A stretch of 64,000 bases of DNA from NCBI GenBank assembly GCA_041300865.1, contig JBFYTF010000172.1, positions 113,754 to 177,753 of the forward strand, given 5' to 3'. How positions within the stretch are numbered: the stretch's first letter is position 1; each line of letters starts with the position of its first letter. Shown piece after piece: positions 5,025 to 63,564 of the stretch. Both the position numbers and the translations under genes were made by a program. Source of the DNA: Anaerolineae bacterium. Lineage in GTDB: Bacteria; Chloroflexota; Anaerolineae; JAAYZQ01. The notes under the pieces are model-generated. The model saw nothing but the letters and a program-made list of their open reading frames with translations. It was not told the origin of the DNA and did no database searches.

Positions 5025-5457
5025 ACCGTTGTCCCTCTTGGCCTCCCGCGGTTCTCGCCGCACGCTATCCTACCACGACCCGTGCCCGATGCCAAATCCT
5101 TGCGCGGGCCGTACTGGACTAGCCGTTGTCGGGCGCGTCGACGCGGTAGAGCTCTTCCCGTTCCCGGACATGCTGGGCCAGGTTGGCACAGCGGTCCGCC
5201 AGGGGCGCGCCGCGGCACGCTGCGGATCTGCTCCAGCGGCACGCCGTTCTCGAGTACCACGAAACGTTCGGCGGGGAATCCGCCGCGGCGGGGCAGCGCA
5301 CGGAAAAGTCGGGGGGCGAGGGGTAGTCCTCGTTGGTCACCAGCAGCGTGACGTCATGTGCCTGGCTCACAGTGCGGGCAAACTCCCAGTAGCGGATGGC
5401 GGGTCCCATCCGCTGCTCATCCAGGGGCAGGGGCGAGATCAGCAGGATGTCAGCCAA
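5021..5457 (-). pseudogene. Probable degraded GT4 glycosyltransferase remnant
   Basis: A TTG at 5457 opens 'ADILLISPLPLDEQRMGPAIRYWEFARTVSQAHDVTLLVTNEDYPSPP', a typical GT4 N-terminus. The frame then becomes non-protein-like. A different frame reads 'GFPAERFVVLENGVPLEQIRSV' (GT4 mid-region 'NGV' motif), and the first frame resumes with 'LAQHVREREELYRVDAPDNG*'. About 140 codons expected between these pieces are absent. Confidence 0.4.
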
Positions 5458-5547
5458 GCCCGTCCCCTGAGCCCTGCCCCTTTGGCCCCGATTCCACGTC
5501 TGTGGAGCACGTGCTGCTCTGTGCCAGAGTTTGTCATCACGGCAGTG

Positions 5548-5576
5548 ATTATAGCATCCCCGGCAGCACTTTCCAA
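5548..5576 (-). promoter_or_regulatory. Sigma70-type promoter, minus strand (cassette copy 1)
   Basis: The minus strand reads TTGGAA-17 nt-TATAAT with TGC immediately 5' of the -10 (extended -10). It points toward the GT remnant and GT operon. Confidence 0.55.
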
Positions 5577-5617
5577 ATGGCCTTCCGAACACGGCACCCA
5601 CCTGTTGCGGCTGCTCC

Positions 5618-5646
5618 TTGGCACTGACTCGCACTTGTGCTATAAT
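5618..5646 (+). promoter_or_regulatory. Sigma70-type promoter, plus strand (cassette copy 1)
   Basis: TTGGCA-17 nt-TATAAT with the extended -10 TGTGCTATAAT. It lies ~85 nt upstream of the ATG at 5731. Confidence 0.6.
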
Positions 5647-5730
5647 GCCGTCTGCGTTCCGGCAGGCAGGCGGAGCGGTGCCACGATTGTCTGCCCAGTG
5701 GATCTGCCTGTTTGCTTGTGCCCTGAGCGG

Positions 5731-7290
5731 ATGTACGGACCAAGGACCTTGGAGGGTGTCTTGCAGAAAACTATGGCCTTGTGCGTGGCCGCCGCATTGC
5801 TGGCCTACGCCGTCCTGGGCTGTACCCCGCGGCTGAGCTCCACGCCGGTGCCTGCTTCTGCCGTGCCGGTCACGATGGCTGCCGCCGCCGCTTCGCCCAC
5901 GGCCACTTCCCCGGCAACTCGCACGGCCCGGCCGCTGCCCACGGCGACGCCTCTTCCGACCCGCACGGCCCGGCCGCTGCCCACGGCGACGCCTCTTCCG
6001 ACCGGCACGGCTCGGCCGCTGGCCACGGCGCTCCCCTCTCCCTCCCCGGTGCCGCCCGCCTCGATCTTTGGCATGCACATGGACAAAGTCTCGGCCGGCA
6101 GCGGGCTCGACCTGGCCGTCGATGCCGGATTGCACTGGGTGCGCTTCCTGACGCTGGAGTGGGACAAGATTGAGCCGGTGCGCACCGATCCACCCACCTA
6201 CCACTGGGAGGCCGTGGACGAGGCCGGCCTCCTCGAGGCTGCCGGGCGGGGGCTAGAAGTCATTGCCCTGGTGCAATTCACCCCGGAATGGGCGCAGGCG
6301 GTCCCTGGCTCGTTCTGTGGTCCCGTCGACACCCAGGCCCTGCCGGATCTGGGCCGCTTTCTGCGGGATGCCGTGGCCCGCTACAGCCCTCCTCCCTACA
6401 ACGTGCGCTATTGGGAACTGGGCAACGAGCCCGATGTGGACCCGAGCCTCGTCCCGGCTCGTTCAGTGTTTGGTTGCTGGGGAAACCTCGCCGACGAGTA
6501 TTACGGCGGGCGCGAGTATGCCGAAATGCTCAAAGTTGCTTATCCTGCCATCAAGGCCCAGGACGAGAGGGCCTTGGTGCTCAACGGCGGCCTGCTCCTG
6601 GACCGGCCCTCGGGGGGCAATGACTCCCACCCTCGTTTCCTGGAGGGCATCCTCGAAGGTGGGGGCGGCGACTATTTCGATATCTTGAGCTTTCACGCCT
6701 ACAGCTACTACCGCGCCGCTACCGGCCAGATTGGCATCCCTGCCTGGCCCGGCTCGCCGACTGTCATGCCGGCCAAAGCGGCCTTCATCCGTGAGCTACT
6801 TGCGCGCTATGGACATGGCGACAAGCCACTCATGAACACCGAGTCTGCCCTGATGTGCGGCGAGGCCAGCCCCGAATGCCTGGAGGCACAGGCTGCCTAT
6901 CCGGCCCGCAGCTATGCGGAAGCCGCGGCCCTCGGGTTAGTGGCCCAGATCCATTACGCCTGGATCAACGAGCACTGGCGGTACACCGGCCTGGTGCTGC
7001 CCGATCTGGAGCCCAAGCCCGCGTACTATGGCTACAAGGTGGCTTCTTCCTTCCTGGCGGGGGCTGCCTACCGCAGCCCGGCGGCGGGGTATCCCGCCGG
7101 AGTCGAGGGCGCGACCTTTGCTGCGCTGGGGGCGCTGGTAGACGTCGTCTGGTCGCAGGACGGACGGCCGCGGGAAGTTGATCTGCCCAAAAACGCGTCC
7201 GTCTTTGACCACTACGGCCGGCCTGTCTCGGCCGATAGCTCCCTCGTCCTCGACGGCGATCCCATCTATATCGTCCGGCAAGACGGGTAA
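5731..7290 (+). CDS. Secreted (lipo)protein, clan GH-A (beta/alpha)8 glycoside-hydrolase-like, paralog group I
   Basis: The N-terminus has a basic n-region, a hydrophobic core and 'AVLGC'. A Pro/Thr repeat linker follows. Motifs 'RYWELGNEPD' (acid/base NEP motif), 'FDILSFHAY' and 'PLMNTESA' (candidate nucleophile Glu) are present. The alternative start is ATG 5773. The ORF-track start at 4897 is rejected. Confidence 0.75.
   Translation: MYGPRTLEGVLQKTMALCVAAALLAYAVLGCTPRLSSTPVPASAVPVTMAAAAASPTATSPATRTARPLPTATPLPTRTARPLPTATPLPTGTARPLATALPSPSPVPPASIFGMHMDKVSAGSGLDLAVDAGLHWVRFLTLEWDKIEPVRTDPPTYHWEAVDEAGLLEAAGRGLEVIALVQFTPEWAQAVPGSFCGPVDTQALPDLGRFLRDAVARYSPPPYNVRYWELGNEPDVDPSLVPARSVFGCWGNLADEYYGGREYAEMLKVAYPAIKAQDERALVLNGGLLLDRPSGGNDSHPRFLEGILEGGGGDYFDILSFHAYSYYRAATGQIGIPAWPGSPTVMPAKAAFIRELLARYGHGDKPLMNTESALMCGEASPECLEAQAAYPARSYAEAAALGLVAQIHYAWINEHWRYTGLVLPDLEPKPAYYGYKVASSFLAGAAYRSPAAGYPAGVEGATFAALGALVDVVWSQDGRPREVDLPKNASVFDHYGRPVSADSSLVLDGDPIYIVRQDG
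5917..6042 (+). repeat. 42-bp tandem repeat x3 encoding TRTARPLPTATPLP units
   Basis: The units are 5917-5958, 5959-6000 (near identical) and 6001-6042 (diverged). All are in frame within the linker of the 5731 gene. Confidence 0.85.
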
Positions 7291-7307
7291 TCTCCGCGGC
7301 GAGGGTC

Positions 7308-8036
7308 CTATTCGTCTTTCGCCGTGAGCCTGCGCGCCACCTGCCAGATCAGAACCAGCAGGAGCACGGTGTAGACGACGGCCAAGCCCACGTAAAAGCC
7401 CTTGGTACCCAGGATGTACGGCCGGCCCTGGGTCAGACGGTTCAGGAGCAGACCGATTTTGTCCCGCGTGCGGAGGGAATAGCGCGTCTGGAAGACCAGG
7501 TTGCCCGTGACCTGCTGGCCGTCGATATAGGCGCCGGCACCGTCCAGTACCGATGCCGGGCCGTAGACGACCCGGACGGCCTCGTCCGGCCGCGACACCG
7601 GCGATTCCAGGAAGAAGTAGAACGTCTGCCCCTCCGAGTCACGCACCGGCTCGAACTCGAAGGCGTACGGTACACCGGCAGTGATCTGACCGGGGTCGAT
7701 CGTCTCCGTCCAGAGGTCAGAGGTGGCATCCACCCCCGCCCGTAGGTGAAAGGTGAGCGGCTCCGCGGCACCCGTCGCCGGGGGCTGGAGTGCTACCTCG
7801 ATACGGTACAGGCCGGGCAGGGGCGCAGTCCAGGCCTGGCCCACTTGCGTGCTGCCCACCAGCTCCGGAGACAGGTCACCGCCCGCCGAGTTGCCCCAAG
7901 GCGGGGCCGTGAGACGATCGAGGCCGGACTTGGCGACGACGAGCAGCGCGACCAGCCACACCGCCAGCAGTGGCGTCACCACTACCGCGGCCAGGCTGGT
8001 CAGGGTCTCTCGTTTCGGCGGTACATCGTCATCCAT
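7308..8036 (-). CDS. Hypothetical bitopic membrane protein with beta-rich ectodomain
   Basis: 242 aa from ATG 8036 (MDDDVPPKRE). There is one TM helix near the N-terminus (LAAVVVTPLLAVWLVALLVV) and one at the C-terminus (FYVGLAVVYTVLLLVLIW). I recognise no family. The gene is divergent from the 1041-aa membrane protein gene. Confidence 0.6.
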   Translation of the reverse strand: MDDDVPPKRETLTSLAAVVVTPLLAVWLVALLVVAKSGLDRLTAPPWGNSAGGDLSPELVGSTQVGQAWTAPLPGLYRIEVALQPPATGAAEPLTFHLRAGVDATSDLWTETIDPGQITAGVPYAFEFEPVRDSEGQTFYFFLESPVSRPDEAVRVVYGPASVLDGAGAYIDGQQVTGNLVFQTRYSLRTRDKIGLLLNRLTQGRPYILGTKGFYVGLAVVYTVLLLVLIWQVARRLTAKDE

Positions 8037-8140
8037 AGTGGCTGCCGGCCTGTCTGAGCCTGGCCCAACTCCTTTCTCCCCGGATGGCAAGAGTCTGCAC
8101 AACGCGTGGTGCCCCCGTGGAGTTTGCCTTCACAGCATAG

Positions 8141-8169
8141 ATTATAGCAGTCGTGGCAACACTTTCCAA
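8141..8169 (-). promoter_or_regulatory. Sigma70-type promoter, minus strand (cassette copy 2)
   Basis: The minus strand reads TTGGAA-17-TATAAT with TGC upstream. It is homologous to 5548-5576. Confidence 0.55.
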
Positions 8170-8211
8170 ATGGCCTGGCGAGCGTGTCGCCCACCAGGCT
8201 GCGGGTGCTCC

Positions 8212-8240
8212 TTGGCACGCGCAGGCACTTGTGCTATAAT
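8212..8240 (+). promoter_or_regulatory. Sigma70-type promoter, plus strand (cassette copy 2)
   Basis: TTGGCA-17-TATAAT with TGTGC upstream. It is homologous to 5618-5646. Confidence 0.6.
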
Positions 8241-8444
8241 GCCGTCTACGTTCCGGCAGGCAGCCGGAGCGGCGGCAGGAGGCGTTTTCCTCCTGCACCA
8301 TGAACTGCGACCTTGAGGGCAAGCTGCAATCGTGAATGGCACTTGGGCCGGCCAGTGTGCCTGCTTGTGGAATAGCGAGGAAATCGGTGCGAGGGTGAAG
8401 CGGAACTCGCACCTGAGCCCGGATATCACCTGCTGCCGCCAGCT

Positions 8445-11400
8445 GTGGATGGTTTATCCCGCCGCACCGTTCTGCCTCGGTGCGCGTTTGCTGAAGGGCT
8501 ACCCTCTGTACGTCGCGCGCTTGGCAGCGGCTGTGCCGGCAAGCCTCGCCGGCTGGCCGCGGTCACGGTAGCGCAAGTCCCCGAGGTCGACGTGCTGCAC
8601 CGTCGCGGCACCGCTGCTTCCTGGGTCCAGGGCCGCGACATCCCCGGACCGTGGCGCCCGCTGGCCTGGGTGGGCAGCCTGGGCCTTGGGCTGGGCTTCT
8701 ACATGCTCGTGGCCCGACGCCTGCACATCCCCTATCACTCGTTCCAGGACGTTGTAGCCACACCGGCCTTTGACAACCACGCCGAGCTACAGGATCTAGC
8801 CCTTTATCTGCTGGCTCTGGTCCTGGTGCCGCTGATAATGGCCGCAGGTTATGTTCTGTGGCTGGGCCTCGTTGCGCTGCTCAGTACCCAGCGCGAGCCT
8901 GTGGCGCGGTGGAGCCCACCGCTGGCGACGCTCGTCCTCCTGCTGTCCTGGCTGGGGGTCCTGGCCTGGGGGCCGCCCGTCCTGGCCTCGGCGCTCTTGC
9001 TGGGGGGCGGCGTGCTGGTGATCGTTGAGGGGCTGGAGATTGCACGGGCTCGTCTCGCGCACAGCCTGCTGCCGGCGGCCGGCCTGCCCAGCCCGGCGCT
9101 GCAGGGGGCGGTGGCGCTTCTCGGTCTGGGCGTGGGGGTCGCACTACTCGTCGGTCCCCGGCCAGTGCTGCCGTTCGCTGTGCCCGCGGTCGGCGTTGGG
9201 GCGTGTGCAATGGGCCTGTGGGCCACCTGGCTGGCTATATCCTATGGCCTGGCCCGCGCCTGGCAAAAGGAATGGCGCACGCTGGGCCAGGCCCTGGCTT
9301 GTGCCTGCCTACCCCTGTCCCTGTTCTTTGTCCGGGGCCTACTGTGGTGGGAAGTCTGGCAGGCCGGGACCCGGGTGGCGAGCCACGGCTCGCCCTGTGG
9401 TCCGGCCCTCCTGGGCACCGTGGCCCTGGTCGGCGTTGGAGTGGTGGCCTGGGTGGCTCTGGCGGCAGTGCGCCGGGGCACAGAAGTCCAGGGACGGGTT
9501 TTCTGGGGCTGGTTCTGGTGGCTGGCTGTGCCCCTGCTGTTGTATGCCCTGCGTTACAGCCCCAACATCCACGGACCGCTGGACCTCTTTCACGAGGGGG
9601 AACGCCTGGCCCCCGCTCACGCGCTGATGAATGGCCGCGTGGCCTATCGTGATATCGTTTTCGTTCACGGTTTTGGCCGGGACCCGGGCGTTGCCCTGGT
9701 GGCCTTTCGCCTCATGGGCGTTACGGTCGAATCGTTGCGCATGATGGAACACTGGCTCCAGCCCCTGGCCTTTGTGGCCACCTACTACCTGGTGCTGGTG
9801 AGCGTGGGCGGCGGTTGGGCGCTTGCCTATGCGTTCTTGGTCTTGACGCGTTTCTTTCCCATCTTTTACGACTGGCGGATCCTGCCCACGATGGCTGCCT
9901 TGGCCTGCCTGGTGCTGGGTCTGCAGCGGCGACATGGGCTGGGTTGGCCCCTGGCGGCAGGGCTGCTCACCTTTCTAGGCATGGCCGTGGCTTTTGACCT
10001 GGGCACCGTGGCTCTGGCTTGCGGCCTGGCCTTGGGCGTCGCCCTCGCATTGTTCCGGTGGCGCCCGTTCGGGCTCCGCCCCCTCCTGGCCTACACCCTG
10101 CCCCTGGCCGCCGGCACCTTGGGTCTCTGGCTGTGGGCCGAGCCAGCCGGTGCCTGGGACGCCTTGCTGGCCTGGCACGCCCAGATTCTGGATGTTTACC
10201 GCGACTGGAACGGAATGCCGTTCCCTACCTCGGCCACGAGCCTGGCAGAGCTCGTGGAACGCTTTCTTTCACCCCTGGCCAGTGTTCTGGCCCTCGTGGT
10301 GTTATTGATGGCCGCCGTCCGCAACAAGTGGCAGCCCTGGACCTGGGCAGTGCTGGTGCTGCTGGTCGCCAACGTGACCCTGTTCAACCGAGGAGTGGTC
10401 GGCGGTTACGAGCAGGGCACGGCTCTGTTCACGGCCTCGCATTTCGGCCCCCTTTTGCTTCTTCAGCTCGGCTCGTTCCCCGCTGCGCGGCGCCGCGTGG
10501 GCACCGCCCTGATTGTCCTGGTGGCCCTCACCCTCGTCGTGTCACCGACCTGGTTCTCCCTGGTTGGGCTCAGCCCTGGACAGTTTCTGGTCAGCCTGCA
10601 CCTGCGGAACCGGCTCGTGGTACCCGACACTTGGGTGCAGTCGGGTGTGGAGAGGATCGGCGCCATCTATCTGCCCCGTGAGCAGGAGGAGTCGCTGGCC
10701 GAGATCACCGCGCTCTTACAGGGGAGCACGTTCTGGGATCAGACCGATCAGGGCGCGCTCTATTTTCTCAGCGACGGCGCCGGACCAAGCCGTTTTTACA
10801 CCACGCACCACGTTATCAACAGCGACAATCAACGCGAGGTGATCCGCGACCTGTCGGAGGCTCCGCCTGAACGGGTCCTCTATTGCTCCGGCACAGGCTG
10901 GGACGCTATCGCGGGCATCGATCGGACGTTGCGCAGCTTCCTTGTGTCCGAGTATCTGCTCCTGAACTACCACCCCACTGCCCAGGTAGGTGGCTTTACC
11001 GTGCTGGAGCCCGGCCCTGTACTGCCCTCCGAACCACCGCTGGAGTTCCCCGTAGACCTGGGGTACGTGCCGCTCCTGTGGGGCCAGGACCGGCTGGGGG
11101 ACCTGGAAGCTCTGGGGCCCGTGAACGAGATTGCCTGGTCCTTCGAGTCAGAATCTGATGTTGAGGACTGGCACGCTAGTGGCAGCGCACTCGTGGCCCT
11201 TGTCGACGAAGAAGGCTGGCACCTCCGCGCGGCTGCGGGTGGTGTCAGCCTCGAAAACAGCTCCCTTGTCGTCGATCCACCGCATGTTACCTATCTGGCC
11301 CTGGGCCTGCAGGTGGACGCGTCGTGCCCCGGGTCTGGAGTGGCCCGGCTCTATTGGAGGGCGCCTTCTGGCGACTGGGCTGAGGCACGCAGCGTCGTGT

Positions 11401-11570
11401 TTCGGCTGCAGGGAGATGGGCAAGAGCACGTCTACCTGGTGCGCCTGGCCTCCTTCCCTGCCTGGACGTGGAGCAAGCCCATCCAGGGCCTACGGCTCGA
11501 CCTTTCCGGCTGCCCGGCCCTGGATACCACCCTGCATTCTGTTGAGCTGTTCCACGTCCAGGAATGGTAG
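8445..11570 (+). CDS. Large polytopic membrane protein with ~400-aa C-terminal extracytoplasmic domain (possible novel GT-C-like enzyme)
   Basis: 1041-aa ORF. Roughly the first 650 aa are a series of hydrophobic helices. The C-terminal third is soluble-like and beta-rich. The true start is uncertain: the first in-frame ATG is at ~8700, and several GTG codons lie between 8445 and 8700. Confidence 0.6.
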   Translation: MDGLSRRTVLPRCAFAEGLPSVRRALGSGCAGKPRRLAAVTVAQVPEVDVLHRRGTAASWVQGRDIPGPWRPLAWVGSLGLGLGFYMLVARRLHIPYHSFQDVVATPAFDNHAELQDLALYLLALVLVPLIMAAGYVLWLGLVALLSTQREPVARWSPPLATLVLLLSWLGVLAWGPPVLASALLLGGGVLVIVEGLEIARARLAHSLLPAAGLPSPALQGAVALLGLGVGVALLVGPRPVLPFAVPAVGVGACAMGLWATWLAISYGLARAWQKEWRTLGQALACACLPLSLFFVRGLLWWEVWQAGTRVASHGSPCGPALLGTVALVGVGVVAWVALAAVRRGTEVQGRVFWGWFWWLAVPLLLYALRYSPNIHGPLDLFHEGERLAPAHALMNGRVAYRDIVFVHGFGRDPGVALVAFRLMGVTVESLRMMEHWLQPLAFVATYYLVLVSVGGGWALAYAFLVLTRFFPIFYDWRILPTMAALACLVLGLQRRHGLGWPLAAGLLTFLGMAVAFDLGTVALACGLALGVALALFRWRPFGLRPLLAYTLPLAAGTLGLWLWAEPAGAWDALLAWHAQILDVYRDWNGMPFPTSATSLAELVERFLSPLASVLALVVLLMAAVRNKWQPWTWAVLVLLVANVTLFNRGVVGGYEQGTALFTASHFGPLLLLQLGSFPAARRRVGTALIVLVALTLVVSPTWFSLVGLSPGQFLVSLHLRNRLVVPDTWVQSGVERIGAIYLPREQEESLAEITALLQGSTFWDQTDQGALYFLSDGAGPSRFYTTHHVINSDNQREVIRDLSEAPPERVLYCSGTGWDAIAGIDRTLRSFLVSEYLLLNYHPTAQVGGFTVLEPGPVLPSEPPLEFPVDLGYVPLLWGQDRLGDLEALGPVNEIAWSFESESDVEDWHASGSALVALVDEEGWHLRAAAGGVSLENSSLVVDPPHVTYLALGLQVDASCPGSGVARLYWRAPSGDWAEARSVVFRLQGDGQEHVYLVRLASFPAWTWSKPIQGLRLDLSGCPALDTTLHSVELFHVQEW

Positions 11571-11645: not shown

Positions 11646-13139
11646 TCAGGGCTCAGGGTAAAGATACACTGGGCTGGATCCCACACTCACAGTGGTTTCT
11701 CCGTCCGTTCGCCCGTCTGTGCCGTCGTACACCCAGCTCTCGACCCCATACTTGTCGACCACAAGCACGAGCTTTGCCGGCAGGGCGAGCGGATAGATCT
11801 GCCCGTCGCTGGTCCAGGCCACGGTGAATCGTTTCTGCCTGTCGGGTGCGAGAAACAGGTAGGCTTCCATGGCATCCGTGCCCTTCTCTTCGGTCGACAG
11901 CGCTCCAAGGTACCTGGTATTGCCCAACCGCGCGGCGGTGGTCTGGTAGGCGTAGAAGGCCAGTTTGCGGGTCAGGTCGGCCTCCAACAGGCCCGTCTTC
12001 CAGGGTCCCGTTTCCTCGTCGACGAGCATGAACCAGGATAGGCCTACGAGGTCAGCAGCCATCGCCTGAGCGTAGACGATGAGCACGTAGCGGCTCTGGA
12101 TTTCGTCTGTGCCCGTGTTGACGTTTTCCACACCCGCCTCGGTGCACATCACCGGCTTGTTCAGGCCATACGAGGCCAGCTTGTTGCGAAGATAGACGGT
12201 CTTGCCGATGAGGCCAGGCCCAAAGGGCGCCCACTTTTCGGCAAAGGCCGTGGGGTAGTAGTGAAAGTTGAGCACGTCAAAGTAAGCGCTTCCACCGTGC
12301 TCTAGCACGCGATCTAGGAACTCGGGCACAAACGGTCCGCCCTCTGCTTCCCAGATTTCGTAGGGCGTCGCCCAGAAATCGAATGCAAGACCACCCAGGA
12401 GCACTTGGACCTCGGGGTCTACCTGCTTGATGGGTTGGTAGACCGCCGCCAACATCTCGGCGTAGGCCTCCGCGTGGTAGCCCCAGTAGCCTAGAGCCGC
12501 GGCCCAGAGGTGATCTCCATTGTCCGGCTCGTTGTAAAACTCCCATAGCTTGACGTCGTAGGGCGGGGCGCTGTACCGGTCGACGGCGGCGACTACAAAT
12601 TCGACGAACTCGCTGAGGGGCACCTTGTCGATGGGGCCACCGGGGTACGTGGCCGCCCAGCCCGGATTGCCCTCGATCGTGAGAATCAAATCCATGCTGC
12701 TGGCCCTCATTTGCGCCAGCGCCTGCTCGTAGACAGGGGACCACTGAAATTCGCTTGGGCCGGTGTTTACGGGCTCCACCGATGCCCATTTCAATGGAAT
12801 GCGGACCCGCGCCACTCCCGCCTCGGCTGCTTCGGCGACCTCGGTATCGGTGCCGGCGTACATCTGGATCCCGAAACGGGAATCCGCGTAGGCGCGGTAG
12901 GAATGCTGCACAAGCGGGAGAAAGATCGACTGCGTCGGTGTCTGCGCCGGCTCAACCTCGACGGGGAGCGAAACGGAGAAGAGAGAGCGTGCCTGCGAGG
13001 CAGGAAGCAGCCCGGCTAGGAGCAGGGCCACTGCCAGCGACCAGAATCGCCGGCTCGGGCTCCCTCGCCTGGAAGGCAAAGCCCCGTGCTTCTTGCGCGG
13101 GCAAGCTGCATATTTCACCCTGGTTTCTGTGGTCTCCAT
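11646..13139 (-). CDS. Secreted clan GH-A glycoside-hydrolase-like protein, paralog group I (divergent)
   Basis: It has a signal-like N-terminus (FWSLAVALLLAGLLPASQA). Motifs 'LWEFYNEPD', 'FDVLNFHYY' and 'PVMCTEAG' are colinear with the 5731 and 16338 proteins. Confidence 0.75.
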   Translation of the reverse strand: METTETRVKYAACPRKKHGALPSRRGSPSRRFWSLAVALLLAGLLPASQARSLFSVSLPVEVEPAQTPTQSIFLPLVQHSYRAYADSRFGIQMYAGTDTEVAEAAEAGVARVRIPLKWASVEPVNTGPSEFQWSPVYEQALAQMRASSMDLILTIEGNPGWAATYPGGPIDKVPLSEFVEFVVAAVDRYSAPPYDVKLWEFYNEPDNGDHLWAAALGYWGYHAEAYAEMLAAVYQPIKQVDPEVQVLLGGLAFDFWATPYEIWEAEGGPFVPEFLDRVLEHGGSAYFDVLNFHYYPTAFAEKWAPFGPGLIGKTVYLRNKLASYGLNKPVMCTEAGVENVNTGTDEIQSRYVLIVYAQAMAADLVGLSWFMLVDEETGPWKTGLLEADLTRKLAFYAYQTTAARLGNTRYLGALSTEEKGTDAMEAYLFLAPDRQKRFTVAWTSDGQIYPLALPAKLVLVVDKYGVESWVYDGTDGRTDGETTVSVGSSPVYLYPEP

Positions 13140-16200: not shown

Positions 16201-16317
16201 CCGGCCGTGCGTCCGGCGGACGCGCGCCGAAACTGATGTCGTCCTGGTCCGGCGGGGGGGAGTTGCTGATTCGACCATTTGACAGACCTCAGCACTGTGT
16301 GCTAGAATGTCCGGCAT
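13210..16317 (-). CDS. GH78-like (alpha-L-rhamnosidase family) six-hairpin glycosidase
   Basis: 1035-aa ORF. The C-terminal half carries rhamnosidase-type motifs: 'GATTWWELY' (compare TLWE.W) and 'SLSHAWGASPSWFL' (compare SLNH...GS...W). The N-terminal hydrophobic segment is LALAVVVALLA. The start is ATG 16317 or 16278. Confidence 0.65.
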   Translation of the reverse strand: MPDILAHSAEVCQMVESATPPRRTRTTSVSARVRRTHGRLPASLALAVVVALLADGALPPLAGLAKPAAAAPRDSAQAVLGGSPVWPPGDTNPGAVALFRSPFDLPAGLVDLHLSIIADTRYEVWLDGQWLGRGPARFSRVRQEFDSLALGDLSPGSHLLAVLVQYAPNVRRSESLRPALQARVQGWNGTGWQTVTATGPGWKATVSPAWDSQAAPVSELQLIGPMEILDLRLLPAGWAQPAFDDASWSLALEILPTPFPALGPRTIPALDEVARLPIALVESGLLSPGWQLVELNAPEGTATATYSLAVTATRPTWLRLEALEVGAVSVDAGPPVTWTALSDPRRPDVLLASAWVAAGEHSLAIDVPGDGTCVTHRSEPQANGTGDAFAPAICTPVGGRVLAIAQQDLQISALSGLPPSHDPGRRTLLANPVPGGDEAAQVSLEEGGANVVLPTASVPRYVVLDFGRTLHGRISLEVEGPAGTMIDAGLDERLTEGRPLPDPGSLSSNLWSQVDSWILDGTPRWLTTLDARAGRYLLLQVWGPGPVRLQQVHIREELYPVEQLGTFASSDPLLDTIWQTGVDTVRVNMADAYTDTPWRERGQWWGDAMIAYYANRAAFGDLALLRRGLRQMADAIDEDGRPPGMAPNWPGGFMLDFGMLWMEGLYLYWTQSQDLGPVLELYPAAERLASFLASYEDASGLMNVPPAHWSQSALVDWSAASSRSGESTALNAQYSSVLWQLGEMALAMGDDTRAQYYRDKSATVRQRINDLLFLPEDGCYATSRLDGVVVGPTLHAQAWALRYGVVPAERRASTVAALSRKLVPFFSPEGVSATEPLGLSSVLEGLAVGGATPTALALIRGRYGEMLAQGATTWWELYTPRQTRGHSLSHAWGASPSWFLSSHVLGGLVLDPATWRVAPHPGGLRHAHGSVPMDNGLLAIEWQLPGCGQLDLRVWSPQDTAGDVLLPVHRLDAQVIMDGIPIWDGGRLAQPAVEMTVDGLLISGIPGGHHDISVTCACQATWLPLVSSASPISDP
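16279..16308 (+). promoter_or_regulatory. Sigma70-type promoter
   Basis: TTGACA-18-TAGAAT with TGTGC upstream (extended -10). The downstream SD is AAGGAGG and the ATG is at 16338. It overlaps the 5' end of the divergent GH78-like ORF. Confidence 0.6.
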
Positions 16318-16337: not shown

Positions 16338-17792
16338 ATGAAGCCTAACCGCCACCGCCTGTCGTGGTCCGTCTGGCTGCTGTTGATCCTGACCATCCTG
16401 CTGTCCTCGTTTTTGCTGCCGGGACCGTTGCCCGGTAAAGCAGCTGCACCTGTGCAGATGCACCTGTCCTATCTACCATCCGTCGTCTTTGACACCGGCT
16501 ACCCACGGCCCTTTGGCACCGAATGGATGCAGTCGTCTACGTTAGTATCGAGCTATACTCAGCATGCCCAAGACCTCGGCTTGAGCTCGATCCGGCTGTA
16601 CCGCGTGAGTTGGCGGGCCGTCCAGCCCGTTGAAAGTGGCCCTTATGACTGGTCCGTCCTGCGCACGCTCGAGGCCGAACTCGTGGCAGCGCGGCAAGCC
16701 GGCCTCGTGCCAATGGTCGTCGTCCATCATAGTCCTACGTGGGCGACGATCAACGAACCTTTCGTGACCGACTGCGGCGCCATCCGCACAGACAAGTTCC
16801 AGGCCTTTGCGAATTTCATGTCTGCCCTCGTCACGCGCTACAAGCAGCCGCAGTTCGACGTCCACTATTGGGAGCTGGGCAACGAGCCCGACGTCGATCC
16901 GACCCTCGTGCCCCCCGACCAGGTCTTCGGCTGCTGGGGTGACATCGACGACCCTTACTATGGCGGACGCCACTATGGCGAGATGCTGAAGGTGGTTACG
17001 CCCTCCATCAAGGCGGCGGATCCCAAGGCCAAGGTCATCATCGGCGGCCTATTGCTCGACGCGCCGGTTCCCCTGCCCGGAGAGGGTAATCCTCAACGCT
17101 TTTTTGAGGGCATCCTCGTGACCGGCGCGGCTCCGTACCTGGACATCGTGGCCTATCATTCATATCCTTCTTACACGGGCCGGCTCCATGACTATGACCT
17201 CGCGAACCAGGAGTGGTTAGCGTGGGGCGGCTGGACGCTCGGTAAGGCGCGGTTCCTGCGTGCAGCCATGGCTTCCTTCGGTGTTTCGAAACCCGTCATG
17301 CTGAACGAAACGGCCCTGGGCTGCAACTCCGACTGGTATGCCTGCGACCCTCCTCCTATCGAGTTTTTTCAAGCACAGGCCAATTATCTGGTCCGCGTCT
17401 TTACCCGCGCCCGCAGCGAGGATATTCAGGGTCTTTCCTGGTACACTCTGAATGGACCGGGTTGGCGAAGCACCGGCCTTCTGGACGAGAACGGAGTCCC
17501 GCGGCCGGCCTATTGGGCCTACCAACAGCTTGCATCGCAGCTCAATCGCAGCCTGTACGAGGGCACCGTCACTTACGGCTCGGACGTCGAGGCCTACAGC
17601 TTTGTACGGGCCAAGGAGCGCGTGCATGTCGCCTGGTCCCTCGATTATACTGCCGATACCATAAGCGTATCCCAATCCTCATTCCTGGCGGCCTATGACC
17701 GCGACGGCACGGCTCTGTCGCCCGTGGCCTCGGGCACATCCTACCAGTTCAGCGTGGGCTTCAGTCCCATCTACCTGGTCCTGAAAAAGTGA
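16338..17792 (+). CDS. Secreted clan GH-A glycoside-hydrolase-like protein, paralog group I
   Basis: It starts MKPNRHRLSWSVWLLLILTILLSSFLL, a signal peptide. 'HYWELGNEPDVDPTLVP..VFGCWG' is nearly identical to the 5731 protein, and 'PVMLNETA' is also shared. The ORF-track start at 16044 is rejected. Confidence 0.8.
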   Translation: MKPNRHRLSWSVWLLLILTILLSSFLLPGPLPGKAAAPVQMHLSYLPSVVFDTGYPRPFGTEWMQSSTLVSSYTQHAQDLGLSSIRLYRVSWRAVQPVESGPYDWSVLRTLEAELVAARQAGLVPMVVVHHSPTWATINEPFVTDCGAIRTDKFQAFANFMSALVTRYKQPQFDVHYWELGNEPDVDPTLVPPDQVFGCWGDIDDPYYGGRHYGEMLKVVTPSIKAADPKAKVIIGGLLLDAPVPLPGEGNPQRFFEGILVTGAAPYLDIVAYHSYPSYTGRLHDYDLANQEWLAWGGWTLGKARFLRAAMASFGVSKPVMLNETALGCNSDWYACDPPPIEFFQAQANYLVRVFTRARSEDIQGLSWYTLNGPGWRSTGLLDENGVPRPAYWAYQQLASQLNRSLYEGTVTYGSDVEAYSFVRAKERVHVAWSLDYTADTISVSQSSFLAAYDRDGTALSPVASGTSYQFSVGFSPIYLVLKK

Positions 17793-23319: not shown

Positions 23320-23395
23320 TGGTGGAGCTGAGGGGACTCGAACCCCTGACCTTCTCAATGCCATTGAGACGCGCTCCCAGCTGCGCTACAGCCCC
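23320..23395 (-). tRNA. tRNA-Ala (anticodon GGC)
   Basis: I folded a 76-nt cloverleaf by hand: GGGGCTG acceptor, G3:U70 Ala identity pair, anticodon loop ATGGCAT, T-loop TTCGAGT, encoded CCA. Confidence 0.9.
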
Positions 23396-23430: not shown

Positions 23431-23506
23431 TGGTGGAGCTGAGGGGATTCGAACCCCTGGCCTCTACAGTGCGATTGTAGCGCTCTCCCAGCTGAGCTAC
23501 AGCCCC
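23431..23506 (-). tRNA. tRNA-Ala (anticodon CGC)
   Basis: 76-nt cloverleaf with the same acceptor stem and G3:U70, anticodon loop ATCGCAC, T-loop TTCGAAT, encoded CCA. Confidence 0.9.
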
Positions 23507-56476: not shown

Positions 56477-59013
56477 GGCCATTTCTGCTGTCCGTGGCGC
56501 TGTGGCTGACCTTGCTGTCGGGGCTGGCTGCGGCCGGCGACGGGCCGGTAGCTCCCCAGGCGCGAGCCCTCGCCGCCGGCGCAGCCTGCCGGCCCGCGCT
56601 GTTCGAGCGCCAGCGCTACGGGTTCGTGGCCACGCAAGGCTCGTGGCCGCAGACCTTTGATGTGGCGCGCCTGCATGCCGGCTGGGCTGCGGACCACGCC
56701 CTGGGCGCGCCTCCCTCCGGTATGGACCGTGCCCTCGTGCTGCGCACGCCTTACGGCTACCAGGTGGACCCAGCGCTGTTGGGCCCCATCGTAGACGCCA
56801 ATCCCGGCGCGACCTGGCTCATCAGCAACGAGCCCGATTCCATCTGGCAGGACGATCTGCCCCCGGCCGAGTATGCCCGCATTTACCACGACGCCTACGT
56901 CTTCCTGAAGGCGCGTGACGCCAGCGCCCGCGTGGCGGCCGGTGGCATTGTCCAGCCCACACCGCTGCGCCTCCAATACCTCGACCTCGTCCTCGACGCG
57001 TATCGAGCTCGCTACGGCCGCGCCCTGCCTGCCGATCTGTGGCACATCCACAACGCGATCCTCAACGAGGTCAGCTGCAGCTATGATCCGGCGAACTGCT
57101 GGGGTGCCCAGATCCCGACCGGCGTCGACGCTGACTTCGGCGTCCTCAGGGATATCGACGACAACGACAACCTGGACATGTTCAAAGCCCAGATCTGGGC
57201 TTTTCGCCAATGGCTGGCCAGCCGCGGCTACGCCGGGCTGCCTGTTATAGTCTCCGAGTTTGGTGTCCTCATGCCCGAGTCGTACGGCTTTGACCCGGCC
57301 CGCGTGACTGCGTTCATGACCGCCACCTTTGACTTTCTGGCCACGGCCTCCGACCCGCTTCTGGGCGATCCCCTTGACGGGGGCCGCCTGGTGCAGCGCT
57401 GGGCGTGGTTCAGCCTCGATGTGCCGGCCTACGATCCGGAAACGGCGCTGACAGGCTTTAACGGCAACCTTTTTGACCCCAAAACGGCGGATATCACGGC
57501 CTACGGCCTCCACTACGAGGGGCTCACCGCGAGCCTGCCCGCCCTGGACTATGCCGAGCTGGCGCTCATGCGCTGGCAAGTGCCGCCGGTAGGACGGGCC
57601 CTGACGCTGTCGGAGACTGTCACCCTGCCTGTGACGGTGCGCCTGGGCAACAGCGGCACCACGCCCGCCGCGGCCTTTGCTGTGCGCCTGCAGTACAATG
57701 GTGCACGTCACGGCGCTGCGGAGCAGGTTGTGACCGGCCTGCCGTCGTTGGGTTCCGTAGAGCTGACCTTCATCTTGTCCGACCTACTGCCCGGCGTCTA
57801 TGATCTCGACCTGGCCATTGACGCCCTCGACCAGGTGGACGAGCCGGCAGAGTGCGACAACCACCATGTCCGCCGCCTCATCGTGCCCACGCACGTCGTC
57901 TACTTGCCCCTGGTCGTGAACCGCGCCGGCCCGGCCTCCGCCCGGTTGCCCGCAAGTTCCATTTCTCCCCCTTCCTTCGCCGTGGACGAGAGCGGAGTGC
58001 CCGAGTCTTCTCCGCCTTCCCTGGTAGGGAAAGGGGCCGGGGGGGCGGGTTCCCCTGCCCTTCGGGAGTTCCCCTTGCCCCAGCCGGGCAGCTATCCGGG
58101 GCAGCTTGCCCTTGACACTGCCACCGGGGCGGTATGGGTTACCGAGCGTGACGGCAACCGGCTGGCCCGTCTCGATCCTACCGTCGGTGCCTGGGCCGAG
58201 TTCGTCATTCCTACCGGTGCCAGTGAGCCCTGGGGCCTCGCCCTGGATGGAGACGGAAGCCTGTGGTTTGCCGAGACGGCGGGCAACAAGATCGGCCGCC
58301 TGGATCTCGACGGCGGGACCATCGAGGAGTACGGCGGTCTCACGGCGGACAGCGAGCCGTGGGGTGTGGCGGTTGCCGATGGTTACGTGTGGTTCACCGA
58401 GCGGGCGGGCAACAACATCGGCCGCCTCGATTCCACCACCGGCACCCTTGTTGAGTACCCACTCAACGTGGCCGGCTCGCGCCCCTCCGGCCTTTCGGCC
58501 TCGTCCGTCTCGTTTAGCGGGGTCACGCTCTGGTATCTGTGGTTCGCGGAGCCGGGGTCCAACCTGCTGGGCCGCATGCGCTTGGGCGACCCTAAGGTTT
58601 ACGACCTAGCGCCACGCACCGCATACAGCGCTCCCCAGGACGTGGTGTGGGAGGGCGGCACGCCATGGATCACCGAGCTGGCGGCCAACAAGATCGCCAC
58701 GTTCGGTTTCGGCACAACCTCCCTCTGGACAGAGGTGGCCGTGACCACGCCTGACAGCGAGCCGTACGGCATCACCCTCCAGGGCAGCGATCTGGTGTGG
58801 TTTACCGAGCGGGCGGGCAACCGCCTGGGGCGCTACCGGGTCTCCACCGGAGCCCTGGTGGAGTACTCGCTGCCTACGCCGGGAAGCCAGCCGACCGACA
58901 TCGCCGTCGACAGTGCCGGCTGTGCCTGGTACGCCGCCCCAGGAGCCAACCGCATCGGGCGTCTGTGCCCCACGTCCCTTGCGCCCATCTACCTGCCGGT
59001 GGTCATACACTAG
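56473..59013 (+). CDS. Secreted multidomain protein: GH-A 'Glyco_hydro_cc'-like catalytic core + CARDB-like domain + Vgb (streptogramin-lyase)-like beta-propeller
   Basis: The signal peptide is MRPFLLSVALWLTLLSGLAAA. GH motifs are 'WLISNEPD' and 'VIVSEFG'. The CARDB-like stretch includes 'VTLPVTVRLGNSGT'. There are about six repeats of 'EPWG[LV]A...G..WF[AT]E.AGN.IGRLD'. The ATG has an ATGA overlap after GAAGGAG. Confidence 0.75.
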   Translation: MRPFLLSVALWLTLLSGLAAAGDGPVAPQARALAAGAACRPALFERQRYGFVATQGSWPQTFDVARLHAGWAADHALGAPPSGMDRALVLRTPYGYQVDPALLGPIVDANPGATWLISNEPDSIWQDDLPPAEYARIYHDAYVFLKARDASARVAAGGIVQPTPLRLQYLDLVLDAYRARYGRALPADLWHIHNAILNEVSCSYDPANCWGAQIPTGVDADFGVLRDIDDNDNLDMFKAQIWAFRQWLASRGYAGLPVIVSEFGVLMPESYGFDPARVTAFMTATFDFLATASDPLLGDPLDGGRLVQRWAWFSLDVPAYDPETALTGFNGNLFDPKTADITAYGLHYEGLTASLPALDYAELALMRWQVPPVGRALTLSETVTLPVTVRLGNSGTTPAAAFAVRLQYNGARHGAAEQVVTGLPSLGSVELTFILSDLLPGVYDLDLAIDALDQVDEPAECDNHHVRRLIVPTHVVYLPLVVNRAGPASARLPASSISPPSFAVDESGVPESSPPSLVGKGAGGAGSPALREFPLPQPGSYPGQLALDTATGAVWVTERDGNRLARLDPTVGAWAEFVIPTGASEPWGLALDGDGSLWFAETAGNKIGRLDLDGGTIEEYGGLTADSEPWGVAVADGYVWFTERAGNNIGRLDSTTGTLVEYPLNVAGSRPSGLSASSVSFSGVTLWYLWFAEPGSNLLGRMRLGDPKVYDLAPRTAYSAPQDVVWEGGTPWITELAANKIATFGFGTTSLWTEVAVTTPDSEPYGITLQGSDLVWFTERAGNRLGRYRVSTGALVEYSLPTPGSQPTDIAVDSAGCAWYAAPGANRIGRLCPTSLAPIYLPVVIH

Positions 59014-62118: not shown

Positions 62119-63440
62119 TGCGACGGACGGTCACTATCACGGCCCTGCTGCTCCTGACCGGTGGACTGGGCCTGGTGGTCGGCGGCATACTCGTCCTGCA
62201 GCAAGGGACCGGATTGGCTGCGCTGTCGGGCACGCCGTCCGCCACGGCGTCGCCGCCACCGACGCTCACCGAGCAGATTCTGCCGCCACCGCCCACGGCG
62301 ACCCCGGCACCGGCCGGCCTGCAACCCTCGGAAGGCGGCGCTGGCACGCCCGTCTCCGCGTCCACGCTCCCACCGGCCGTTGCGCCGCCGTCGCCCGGGG
62401 AGAGCACTGCACCCCCGGCGCAGCCGTCCGCGGCCTCTGCGTCGGTGCTCAGCCCGACGGCGAGCCCGTCGCTATCGCCCACCTCTTCCCCCACCGCGCT
62501 GCCCAACACGCCCACGCCCTTGGCGCTCTACTCTCTGCGAGAACGCGTAGGCGTGGGCAGCGGGCTACGCCGCGTGACGCCCGAGCTTGTCAGCTTGTTG
62601 GGCTTTGGCTGGTACCTTGATTGGACCGTGCGCTCCGAGGGGTTGCGCGCGGCCGAGGTCAGTTACATGCCCATGATCCGCCTGCGCAATGGCCAGATCA
62701 CGCCCTCTGGCGACGCCCTGCTGGCGGCCGTGGATGCCCTGCCTGGAGCGCTGTGGCTCATCGGCAACGAGCCGGACGTGAAGTGGCAGGACGACGTCAC
62801 ACCCGAGGCCTACGCCCAGGCCTATCACGATCTCTATGCCCTCCTCAAGGCGCGAGATCCCACCTGCCAGGTGGCCATCGCCGGGGTCTCGCAGCCTACG
62901 CCTCTCCGCCTGCGCTACCTCGACCGGGTCTTACAGGCCTACCATCAGCGCTATGGTCACGAGATGCCGGTCGACGTCTGGAACGTGCACAATTTCGTGT
63001 TGCGCGAGGAGCGGGGCAGTTGGGGTGTGGACATTCCCCCCGGAATGGACGACGCTGCCGGGCGGCTGTATGACATCGACGACCACGACGACCTCGCCCT
63101 CTTTCGCCAACAGCTCGTCGACTTCCGCCGCTGGCTGAAGGAGCGCGGCCAGCAGGACAAACAGCTGATCGTCACCGAGTACGGCATTCTCATGCCCGGC
63201 GAGTACGGCTTTCCCCCCGAAGCCGTACGCCAGTTCATGCTCGACACCTTCGAGCTGATGCGCACGCTGGCGGACCCGGACCTGGGCCAGCCCGCTGACG
63301 GGGGCCGGCTGGTGCAGCGCTGGTGCTGGTTCAGCCTACAGGACGAGCGCTATCCTACCGGCGACCTTGTCCAGCCGGGCAGCGGGCAGCGCACGCTCCT
63401 CGGAGATGCCTTTGCGGGGTATACAACCTCTGAGCGGTGA
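62118..63440 (+). CDS. Anchored/secreted GH-A 'Glyco_hydro_cc'-like hydrolase, paralog of the N-domain of the 56473 protein
   Basis: It has an N-terminal TM/signal and a ~130-aa PT/S-rich linker. 'WLIGNEPD', 'LIVTEYG' and 'GGRLVQRWCWFSL' are colinear with 56473-57600. The ATG overlaps the upstream stop (TGATG). Confidence 0.75.
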   Translation: MRRTVTITALLLLTGGLGLVVGGILVLQQGTGLAALSGTPSATASPPPTLTEQILPPPPTATPAPAGLQPSEGGAGTPVSASTLPPAVAPPSPGESTAPPAQPSAASASVLSPTASPSLSPTSSPTALPNTPTPLALYSLRERVGVGSGLRRVTPELVSLLGFGWYLDWTVRSEGLRAAEVSYMPMIRLRNGQITPSGDALLAAVDALPGALWLIGNEPDVKWQDDVTPEAYAQAYHDLYALLKARDPTCQVAIAGVSQPTPLRLRYLDRVLQAYHQRYGHEMPVDVWNVHNFVLREERGSWGVDIPPGMDDAAGRLYDIDDHDDLALFRQQLVDFRRWLKERGQQDKQLIVTEYGILMPGEYGFPPEAVRQFMLDTFELMRTLADPDLGQPADGGRLVQRWCWFSLQDERYPTGDLVQPGSGQRTLLGDAFAGYTTSER

Positions 63441-63490: not shown

Positions 63491-63564
63491 TGGCTGGGGG
63501 ACAGGGATTTGAACCCCGGTGCCGTGATCCAGAGTCACGTGTCCTGCCGCTAGACGATCCCCCA
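63491..63564 (-). tRNA. tRNA-Gln (anticodon CUG)
   Basis: I folded a 74-nt cloverleaf by hand: U1:A72, G2:C71, G3:C70, discriminator G73, anticodon loop CTCTGGA, T-loop TTCAAAT, encoded CCA. Confidence 0.85.

Follow-up and report, generated by a model that had tools for sequence, protein, structure and literature searches.

A duplicated pair of promoter-like sequences in a glycan gene cluster of a probable Chloroflexota bacterium

The stretch of DNA analysed here (the window; 64 kb, G+C 65.6%) contains a cell-envelope or exopolysaccharide gene cluster whose products make and trim a glycan. Within this cluster, a short intergenic segment with two back-to-back promoter-like sequences, referred to below as the cassette, occurs twice, 2.6 kb apart, as copy 1 at site 1 and copy 2 at site 2 (Table 1). 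The source bacterium is probably an uncultured member of the Chloroflexota, to which the names of homologues at 52–59% identity point. Left of copy 1 lie, in order, an open reading frame (ORF) called as 96 or 112 residues, a GT2 glycosyltransferase, two GT4 glycosyltransferases and a GT-C-like (PMT_2) membrane protein. Right of copy 1 are a GH5-like gene, a convergent gene for a 242-residue membrane protein, copy 2, and then the gene for a large membrane protein of 1041 residues. Further right follow two GH5-like paralogues (11646–13139 and 16341–17792), which match Pfam Cellulase, a rhamnosidase-like protein and an initiating sugar transferase. The 1041-residue protein matched no Pfam or NCBIfam family. 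All-against-all blastp of the four proteins flanking the copies gave no match below E 0.5, and the genes at the two sites are therefore not paralogous.

The two copies, each about 160 nt long, form a colinear direct repeat with 130 of 160 positions identical, and the only indel between them is a single nucleotide after position 5602. The original prediction, made from the sequence before this analysis, had described a colinear match with one 1-nt indel; the alignment agrees, but the repeat is larger than first noted (5527–5686 versus 8120–8280). An identity of roughly three quarters, judged by eye, proved an underestimate, as the span first proposed (5547–5678 versus 8140–8272) gives 110/132 (83%). 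The edges are sharp, with 13/34 (38%) and 7/34 (21%) identical positions in the 34 nt beyond the repeat on one side and the other. One sub-stretch reaches 89% over 73 nt, and the most similar block is one contiguous run of 51 nt. When the whole window was searched with copy 1 by blastn, the single other match was copy 2 (80.7% over 161 columns, E 5.7e-38); nothing else fell below E 0.4 and no third copy was found. Three sub-motifs, searched with up to three mismatches, gave two occurrences each in the window, with 0 expected in shuffled sequences.

Three NCBI metagenome-assembled genomes and one Logan assembly supplied independent contigs of the same organism, on which the copies recur at 99.8–100% identity. 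Contig L005 covers both copies; L003 has copy 1 with the left portion of copy 2, and copy 2 is also on L004. Therefore, the repeat is not an assembly artefact. A 20-mer (CTTGTGCTATAATGCCGTCT) had 0 matches in genome contigs and in metagenome contigs matched only two unrelated chance promoters (L001 and L002); the source genome is evidently in neither collection.

A consensus scan recovered in each copy the leftward TTGGAA-17-TATAAT and the rightward TTGGCA-17-TATAAT, arranged back to back as originally described. All four have hexamers near the sigma-70-type TTGACA/TATAAT (10–11 of 12 positions) and spacers of 17 bp, within the usual 16–18 bp, and these features are retained in the orthologues. 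In the divergent pair, 85 bp separate the −10 boxes. Between the −35 boxes there are 41 bp (copy 1) and 42 bp (copy 2), with 40 bp in the related contig L009 and 42 and 39 bp at sites 2 and 1, respectively, of the related contig L017. Consensus-like promoters number 14 in the first 20 kb of the window against 2.0 expected, a 7-fold enrichment, which indicates that the consensus is meaningful in this organism. From it we infer promoter activity and the start sites used below.

Conservation between the copies follows this anatomy. Both −35 boxes, both extended −10 boxes and the rightward discriminator GCCGTCT are 100% identical, and the first 25 rightward transcribed nucleotides agree at 23 of 25 positions, whereas mismatches concentrate in the promoter spacers (9/14 identical) and in the centre (12/18 identical). 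The 30 of 32 identical positions counted earlier after the rightward −10 box are correct, the two mismatches being 5654 (G/A) and 5670 (G/C). The proposal that conservation extends beyond the hexamers was borne out in other lineages as well: the extended −10, the discriminator and the first ~25 transcribed nucleotides are nearly invariant in copies 1 and 2, L009 and a further related contig, L022, although the flanking proteins of these lineages are only 74–77% identical.

Two simpler accounts of the similarity were rejected. Other strong promoters of the locus (16279–16308, plus strand; 13206–13178, minus strand) have the TGcTAnAAT core alone in common with the cassette, so that the 160-bp similarity exceeds plain promoter consensus. 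The two halves of the cassette are also not inverted copies of one promoter unit, as their alignment shows promoter consensus alone in common.

Syntenic contigs of relatives were reached via homologues of the two rightward proteins; the 1041-residue protein found no relative in the genome contigs. Site-2 cassettes were scored by nhmmer against a four-sequence profile. A full cassette is present upstream of the 1041-residue homologue in L009 (protein 77% identical) and in the L010/L017-20 lineage (68%), scoring 170 bits each, and the profile detected no further copy in about 200 kb of relatives' loci. The similarity first noticed by eye thus held both in a proper alignment and at the orthologous sites of relatives. 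The upstream neighbourhood of the large membrane protein differs in L011 (a 50% homologue), where the upstream gene runs in the same direction and there is no cassette. The gene to the left of the L009 cassette is, judged from its sequence, ABC-transporter ATPase-like. At site 2 of L012, L013, L021 and L023, a same-direction gene precedes a 230-residue gene, with neither cassette nor 1041-residue gene there; this preceding gene encodes 498 residues in L013 (no Pfam match) and 451 residues in L012, and runs off the end of the contig in L021 and L023.

Site 1 is more variable. In L017 both promoters stand in cassette geometry and the rest has diverged; in L022 the rightward promoter is kept together with the full leader, as far as a methyltransferase ATG; and L013 and L012 have the leftward promoter with a copy-1-like spacer (GATTATAACATCCCTGGTACCACTTTCCAAAT) and a different rightward promoter, which in L013 is 109 bp away. 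The contig with the closest GH5-like homologue (L023, 80%) begins inside that gene. Copies 1 and 2 and L009 lie at roughly equal distances from one another (75–80% identity), and the right half in L022 is 74–76% identical. Equidistance argues that the similarity of the copies does not come from a recent copying event. A lineage-specific 18-mer (GCCAGTTGTGCTATAATG) occurs at both sites of L017, a hint that some conversion took place between them.

The direction of copying can be read from a relic of coding sequence at site 2. A 79-residue ORF just downstream of copy 2 gave tblastn matches of 38% identity over 55 residues to the methyltransferase of L021 (E 4e-7) and that of L012 (E 1e-6). Compared with the first 55 residues of the site-1 methyltransferases of L021, L012 and L022, its identity is 34–38% (E 4e-7 to 6e-6), and the methyltransferase of L022 used as query against the window gave E 7e-5. 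In L009 the relic (927–1010) is fused in frame to the large membrane protein, of which it supplies the N-terminal ~26 residues, sharing the segment ERVSHLRQD, and site 2 of L017 keeps GGCCGGCCAGGATG from the start of the methyltransferase gene. In the window the relic is out of frame with the ORF starting at 8445 or 8592, and the true start of the large membrane-protein gene is consequently uncertain. A full-length methyltransferase is found at site 1 and a stub alone at site 2; thus, copying ran from site 1 to site 2. To judge from these sequence comparisons, a single segmental duplication, predating the split of L017, took along the promoter pair, the leader and no fewer than 165 nt of methyltransferase coding sequence. 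At site 1, homology between the window and L022 does not restart until 5762, immediately ahead of the GH5-like start, and site 1 of the window has since lost the methyltransferase, which explains why the copies now share only the first ~35 transcribed nucleotides. The suggestion that the cassette had spread by duplication is therefore upheld, in the form of an old segmental copy that included the leader and the first ~55 methyltransferase codons.

We favour, as the probable explanation, an ancient intra-locus duplication of a divergent promoter region that was kept by selection on promoter and 5′-leader function. The ancestor would have had back-to-back strong promoters of the housekeeping (sigma-70-like) type at site 1, with the glycosyltransferase genes on one side and a methyltransferase/GH5-like unit on the other, and one segmental duplication would have placed the promoter pair, the 5′ leader and the beginning of the methyltransferase gene at site 2. 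The site-2 copy would now drive the genes for the 242- and 1041-residue membrane proteins, an instance of promoter capture. Selection would act on the working parts, namely the −35 boxes and abutting bases, the extended −10 boxes, the discriminator, the ~40-bp spacing and the first ~25 transcribed nucleotides, and the copies would have stayed alike because these parts were kept; occasional gene conversion between the sites may have added similarity. Each copy would then represent two independent, largely constitutive promoters, providing similar transcription input to four outward units of one glycan pathway. Co-regulation of four transcription units, as originally suggested, would in that case follow from the shared core promoters. 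A 5′-terminal hairpin (HP1), which folding places at +2 of the presumed rightward start in each of the five lineage copies, would most likely shield the rightward mRNAs from 5′-end-dependent decay.

Several observations weigh against this interpretation. The copy search covered 64 kb of the genome, and further copies would favour a mobile or regulon-type element. At site 1, the right promoter differs in L012, L013 and L021 and the left half is absent from L022, which makes any history of exchange between the sites tentative. The start sites (5654 and 8248) are predicted from consensus alone, with promoter activity likewise deduced. HP1 is no more stable than shuffled sequences in three of the five copies (z −0.5, −0.46 and +0.93). 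Covariation in the shared leader, suggested earlier as a check, gives no support in the comparison of relatives: the alignment fold gives compensatory changes at 3 of 23 pairs and a covariation term of +0.84. Finally, promoter reuse does not account for a block on the opposite side, GTGAAGACAnACTC, which the predicted leftward transcripts share exactly 7 nt past the −10 box in all four site-2-type cassettes. No common RNA structure was predicted for the leftward leaders, this block included. Read as a leaderless GTG mini-ORF (13–35 codons, ending near or over the next start), which it could be, the block shows variation that is not third-position biased.

A different reading, which we regard as improbable but the strongest of the alternatives, is that the blocks beyond the hexamers form a shared operator, bound by one factor that co-regulates the four units, either at the spacer or at a repeat in the initial transcribed region (TCCGG-N7-CCGGA at +3 to +24). 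The bases abutting the −35 boxes (ATGGCC.., ..GCTCC) and the spacing of 39–42 bp are kept across lineages, CCCAC is common to copy 1, copy 2 and L009, and the initial transcribed region with its inverted repeat is near-invariant between the copies. The regulator site envisaged in the conserved spacer of ~40 bp is only weakly supported: length and −35-abutting bases are maintained, but the block CCCACC..TGCGG, present in both copies and in L009, is missing in the L017/L010 lineage, where the central spacer has diverged. Moreover, no dyad in the spacer is common to both copies. The half-sites of the +3 to +24 repeat are pushed 7 bp apart in L009 by an insertion that pairs with itself, a change that would be tolerated by an RNA stem and not by a dimeric operator.

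The spacer has also been interrupted in a sister strain. In GCA_041300615.1 (L003 1–1612; L007 14529–14618), an insertion sequence (IS) of ~1.65 kb lies at 8193–8203 of copy 2, exactly in the interval that separates the −35 boxes; 11 bp of target (CGCAGCCTGGT) are duplicated, and the ends of the IS are about YAGCAATTCTRAWTTT. It encodes a DDE transposase of 436 residues with weak IS1634/IS4 similarity, and both core promoters are left intact. Logan contigs L006 and L008 of SRR28346254 end exactly at 8203 and 8193, respectively, and have no IS sequence on them, which fits the same insertion; the site is empty in the window, L004 and L005. Absence of the block from L017 together with this insertion marks the spacer as the least constrained part of the cassette, which weakens the case for a regulator site there. 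The IS-bearing strain is also a natural experiment on whether the two promoter halves need each other.

The sequence downstream of copy 2 raises the possibility, to our minds an unlikely one, of an undescribed cis-regulatory leader RNA (ligand-, protein- or translation-sensing), in which HP1 would act together with a second hairpin (HP2) and a short upstream ORF beginning M-x-C-D, the likeness of the promoters being merely carried along. HP2 lies downstream of copy 2 only and is kept with changed base pairs in L022 and L017, where its closing pair is C-G in place of the G-C of the window. Folding yields HP1, HP2 and, at long range, a third stem in four or five lineages, the comparison comprising five sequences from four lineages. 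In L009, the 7 nt inserted in the HP1 loop are self-pairing and extend the stem (−27.2 kcal/mol, z −3.8). The upstream ORF, of 11–12 codons and with the stop overlapping the next start, is present in three of four lineages (the window, L022 ~208–246 and L017 ~12364–12402, the latter two with MSCDRGASCKHE and MCCDGAGEGNRS), and the site-1 leader of L022 resembles the site-2 leader of the window up to the start codon. However, copy 1 has HP1 alone, and a full leader cannot account for the duplicated 160 bp. L009 is without the upstream-ORF start (ATG changed to AGG) and its HP2 is weak, covariation support is absent from the few sequences compared, and Rfam 15 at gathering scores recovered three tRNAs only in the window, with nothing credible in 5300–8700 at E ≤ 10. 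The leader element first proposed is thus plausible as a 5′-terminal hairpin only, with weak statistical and covariation support. Should HP1, HP2 and the M-x-C-D ORF nevertheless form an undescribed leader, an outcome to which we give a low chance, it may sense something or set mRNA lifetime or translation for envelope-glycan genes in a Chloroflexota clade, and the duplication would have spread a regulatory module beyond a promoter. The leftward GTGAAGACAnACTC block might in that case be a leaderless mini-ORF matching this leader, or else be bound by a protein.

Still less likely is a neutral recent copy made by gene conversion, with selection on the core hexamers alone. Direct repeats 2.6 kb apart favour conversion, and both the 18-mer shared by the L017 sites and the contiguous 51-nt run would suit it. 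Yet copies 1 and 2 are no closer to each other than each is to L009, where the flanking protein has just 77% identity, L009 and L022 keep the same blocks unchanged, and the mismatches follow function rather than a tract. A Correia- or MITE-like miniature mobile element inserted twice with outward promoters is largely refuted and very improbable: sharp edges, outward promoters at both ends and an IS active here in the sister strain would suit it, but there are two copies in 64 kb and no further ones in the relatives' loci searched, no terminal inverted repeats (the copies share a single inverted repeat, formed by their two extended −10 boxes), no target-site duplications (the flanks of the copies have no shared direct repeat), and a right edge at site 2 that runs into methyltransferase-derived sequence, as expected of a segmental copy and not of an element end.

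The neighbours originally assigned to the cassettes hold for the GH5-like, 242-residue and 1041-residue genes. On the left side of copy 1, first described as driving a glycosyltransferase operon, the direct neighbour is instead a probable GT4-like fragment, and the GT2 gene has a promoter-like sequence of its own. The ORF of 96 or 112 residues has no Pfam match and no homologue in the relatives' contigs compared, and it is therefore probably a fragment of a GT4 gene. L022 has neither this ORF nor the left half of copy 1.

Table 1. Positions in the window of the two cassette copies, their predicted elements and the adjoining genes.
Feature	Position	Strand	Remarks
Copy 1	5527–5686		Site 1, between GT genes and GH5-like gene; 130/160 identical to copy 2
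Copy 2	8120–8280		Site 2, between 242-aa and 1041-aa membrane-protein genes; orthologues L009 708–870, L010 150–332, L017 12180–12362
Copy 1 putative leftward promoter	5548–5576	−	TTGGAA-17-TATAAT, TG extension; 10/12 consensus matches; homologues at site 1 in L013, L012
Copy 1 putative rightward promoter	5618–5646	+	TTGGCA-17-TATAAT, TG extension; 11/12 consensus matches; predicted start ~5654
Copy 2 putative leftward promoter	8141–8169	−	TTGGAA-17-TATAAT, TG extension (consensus scan)
Copy 2 putative rightward promoter	8212–8240	+	TTGGCA-17-TATAAT, TG extension; predicted start ~8248 (consensus scan)
HP1 of copy 1, predicted 5′-terminal hairpin	5655–5677	+	GUUCCGG..loop..CGGAGC; from +2 of predicted transcript; minimum free energy −13.1 kcal/mol, z −0.5
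HP1 of copy 2, predicted 5′-terminal hairpin	8249–8271	+	9 bp, loop AGGCA; minimum free energy −19.6 kcal/mol, z −3.0; inverted repeat I4
HP2, predicted second leader hairpin	8275–8296	+	GCAGGAGG-CGUUUU-CCUCCUGC; inverted repeat I5
Upstream ORF, 11 codons	8300–8335	+	MNCDLEGKLQS; stop overlaps next start (GTGA)
GTGAAGACAnACTC block	5527–5540, 8120–8133	−	Also L009 ~711–724, L017 ~12186–12199
79-aa ORF, methyltransferase N-terminus relic	8332–8571	+	Just downstream of copy 2
96/112-aa ORF	5119–5457	−	Directly downstream of copy 1 leftward promoter; GT4-N-terminus-like; called 96 aa in L003, L005
Putative GT2 promoter	5067–5095	−	TTGGCA-17-TAGGAT; same promoter in L022 at 72–100
GH5-like putative lipoprotein, 505 aa	5773–7290	+	Downstream of copy 1 rightward promoter
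242-aa membrane protein	7308–8036	−	Downstream of copy 2 leftward promoter
Large multi-pass membrane protein	8445–11570	+	1041 aa from GTG 8445; gene caller 992 aa from 8592; downstream of copy 2 rightward promoter

Other repeats were observed in the window. The first GH5-like gene contains three 42-nt tandem repeats (5895–6020) that encode a Pro/Thr/Ala-rich linker, and a DNA repeat (6372–6455 versus 16829–16912, 76%) is found in the GH5-like genes. Four coding repeats of ~126 nt at 58132–58871 (VWFTE..GN.IGRLD-like) suggest a repeat-domain, propeller-like protein. A direct repeat of 105 nt (57312–57416 versus 63233–63337, 75% identical) has its two copies 5.9 kb apart, and two tandem tRNA genes on the minus strand (23323–23395 and 23434–23506) are 84% identical, with a third tRNA at 63494–63564.

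If the favoured reading, duplication of the divergent promoter region with selection on its working parts, is correct, the locus would be a clean and datable case of transcription rewiring without mobile elements, confined to one pathway locus and long kept in several lineages. The conserved positions would provide a natural footprint of what a promoter requires in a little-studied phylum, including hexamers, TG extension, discriminator, first transcribed bases and spacing. As a compact and presumably strong bidirectional part, the cassette could also be tried as a genetic tool for Chloroflexota.

Among known systems, the promoter-bearing miniature elements Correia, ERIC and REPIN, as cited in PMC3575422, resemble the cassette in being short repeated intergenic DNA with promoters, but the cassette has neither inverted ends nor target duplications and is not dispersed in multiple copies in the 64 kb. 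Symmetrical bidirectional promoters, in which divergent starts arise from overlapping, shared elements on opposite strands (Warman et al., bioRxiv 10.1101/2020.01.31.928960), also drive divergent transcription from one short region; the cassette differs in consisting of two separate full promoters, with their −10 boxes 85 bp and their −35 boxes 41–42 bp apart, and does not belong to that class. The 5′-terminal stem-loops of the ompA type stabilise mRNA (Emory, Bouvet & Belasco 1992, as listed in PMC3997798). HP1 is similar in that it is GC-rich, is predicted 1–2 nt from the 5′ end in all lineages and tolerates a stem-lengthening insertion, whereas its function is a prediction and its stability does not exceed that of shuffled sequences in most copies.

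Closer parallels are found in promoter capture. In the Cit+ event of the E. coli long-term experiment, as cited in PMC3575422, a promoter was captured by duplication; there, as here, duplication places a promoter and part of its native gene before another gene, and in L009 the captured N-terminus is fused to the membrane protein. Cit+ is a recent tandem amplification under laboratory selection, whereas the cassette is ancient and fixed, with both divergent promoters retained. Putative mobile promoters have been defined as stretches of 50 nt or more that share at least 80% identity and lie upstream of non-paralogous genes of a single genome, with no known mobile element (Matus-Garcia, Nijveen & van Passel 2012; PMC3575422), and the pairs in that survey average 92% identity. 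The cassette reaches the 80% threshold (89% over 73 nt; 80.7% over 161 columns) and has non-paralogous neighbours. The definition also places the similar stretch at −150 to −50 from the translation start, which holds for the GH5-like gene (ATG 5773) and for a start at 8332; for the 1041-residue gene it hinges on the start chosen (8332, 8445 or 8592), and for the left-hand ORFs likewise. Unlike the single promoters of the survey, however, it is a bidirectional unit, both copies lie in one locus 2.6 kb apart, their segmental origin is traceable through an accompanying gene 5′ end, and the pair is shared with lineages at 68–77% protein identity. Duplication of promoter regions is a known route of gene rewiring, and the cassette is no new kind of element or class of system; it is set apart from the known cases as a complete divergent pair that is old and has a traceable segmental origin.

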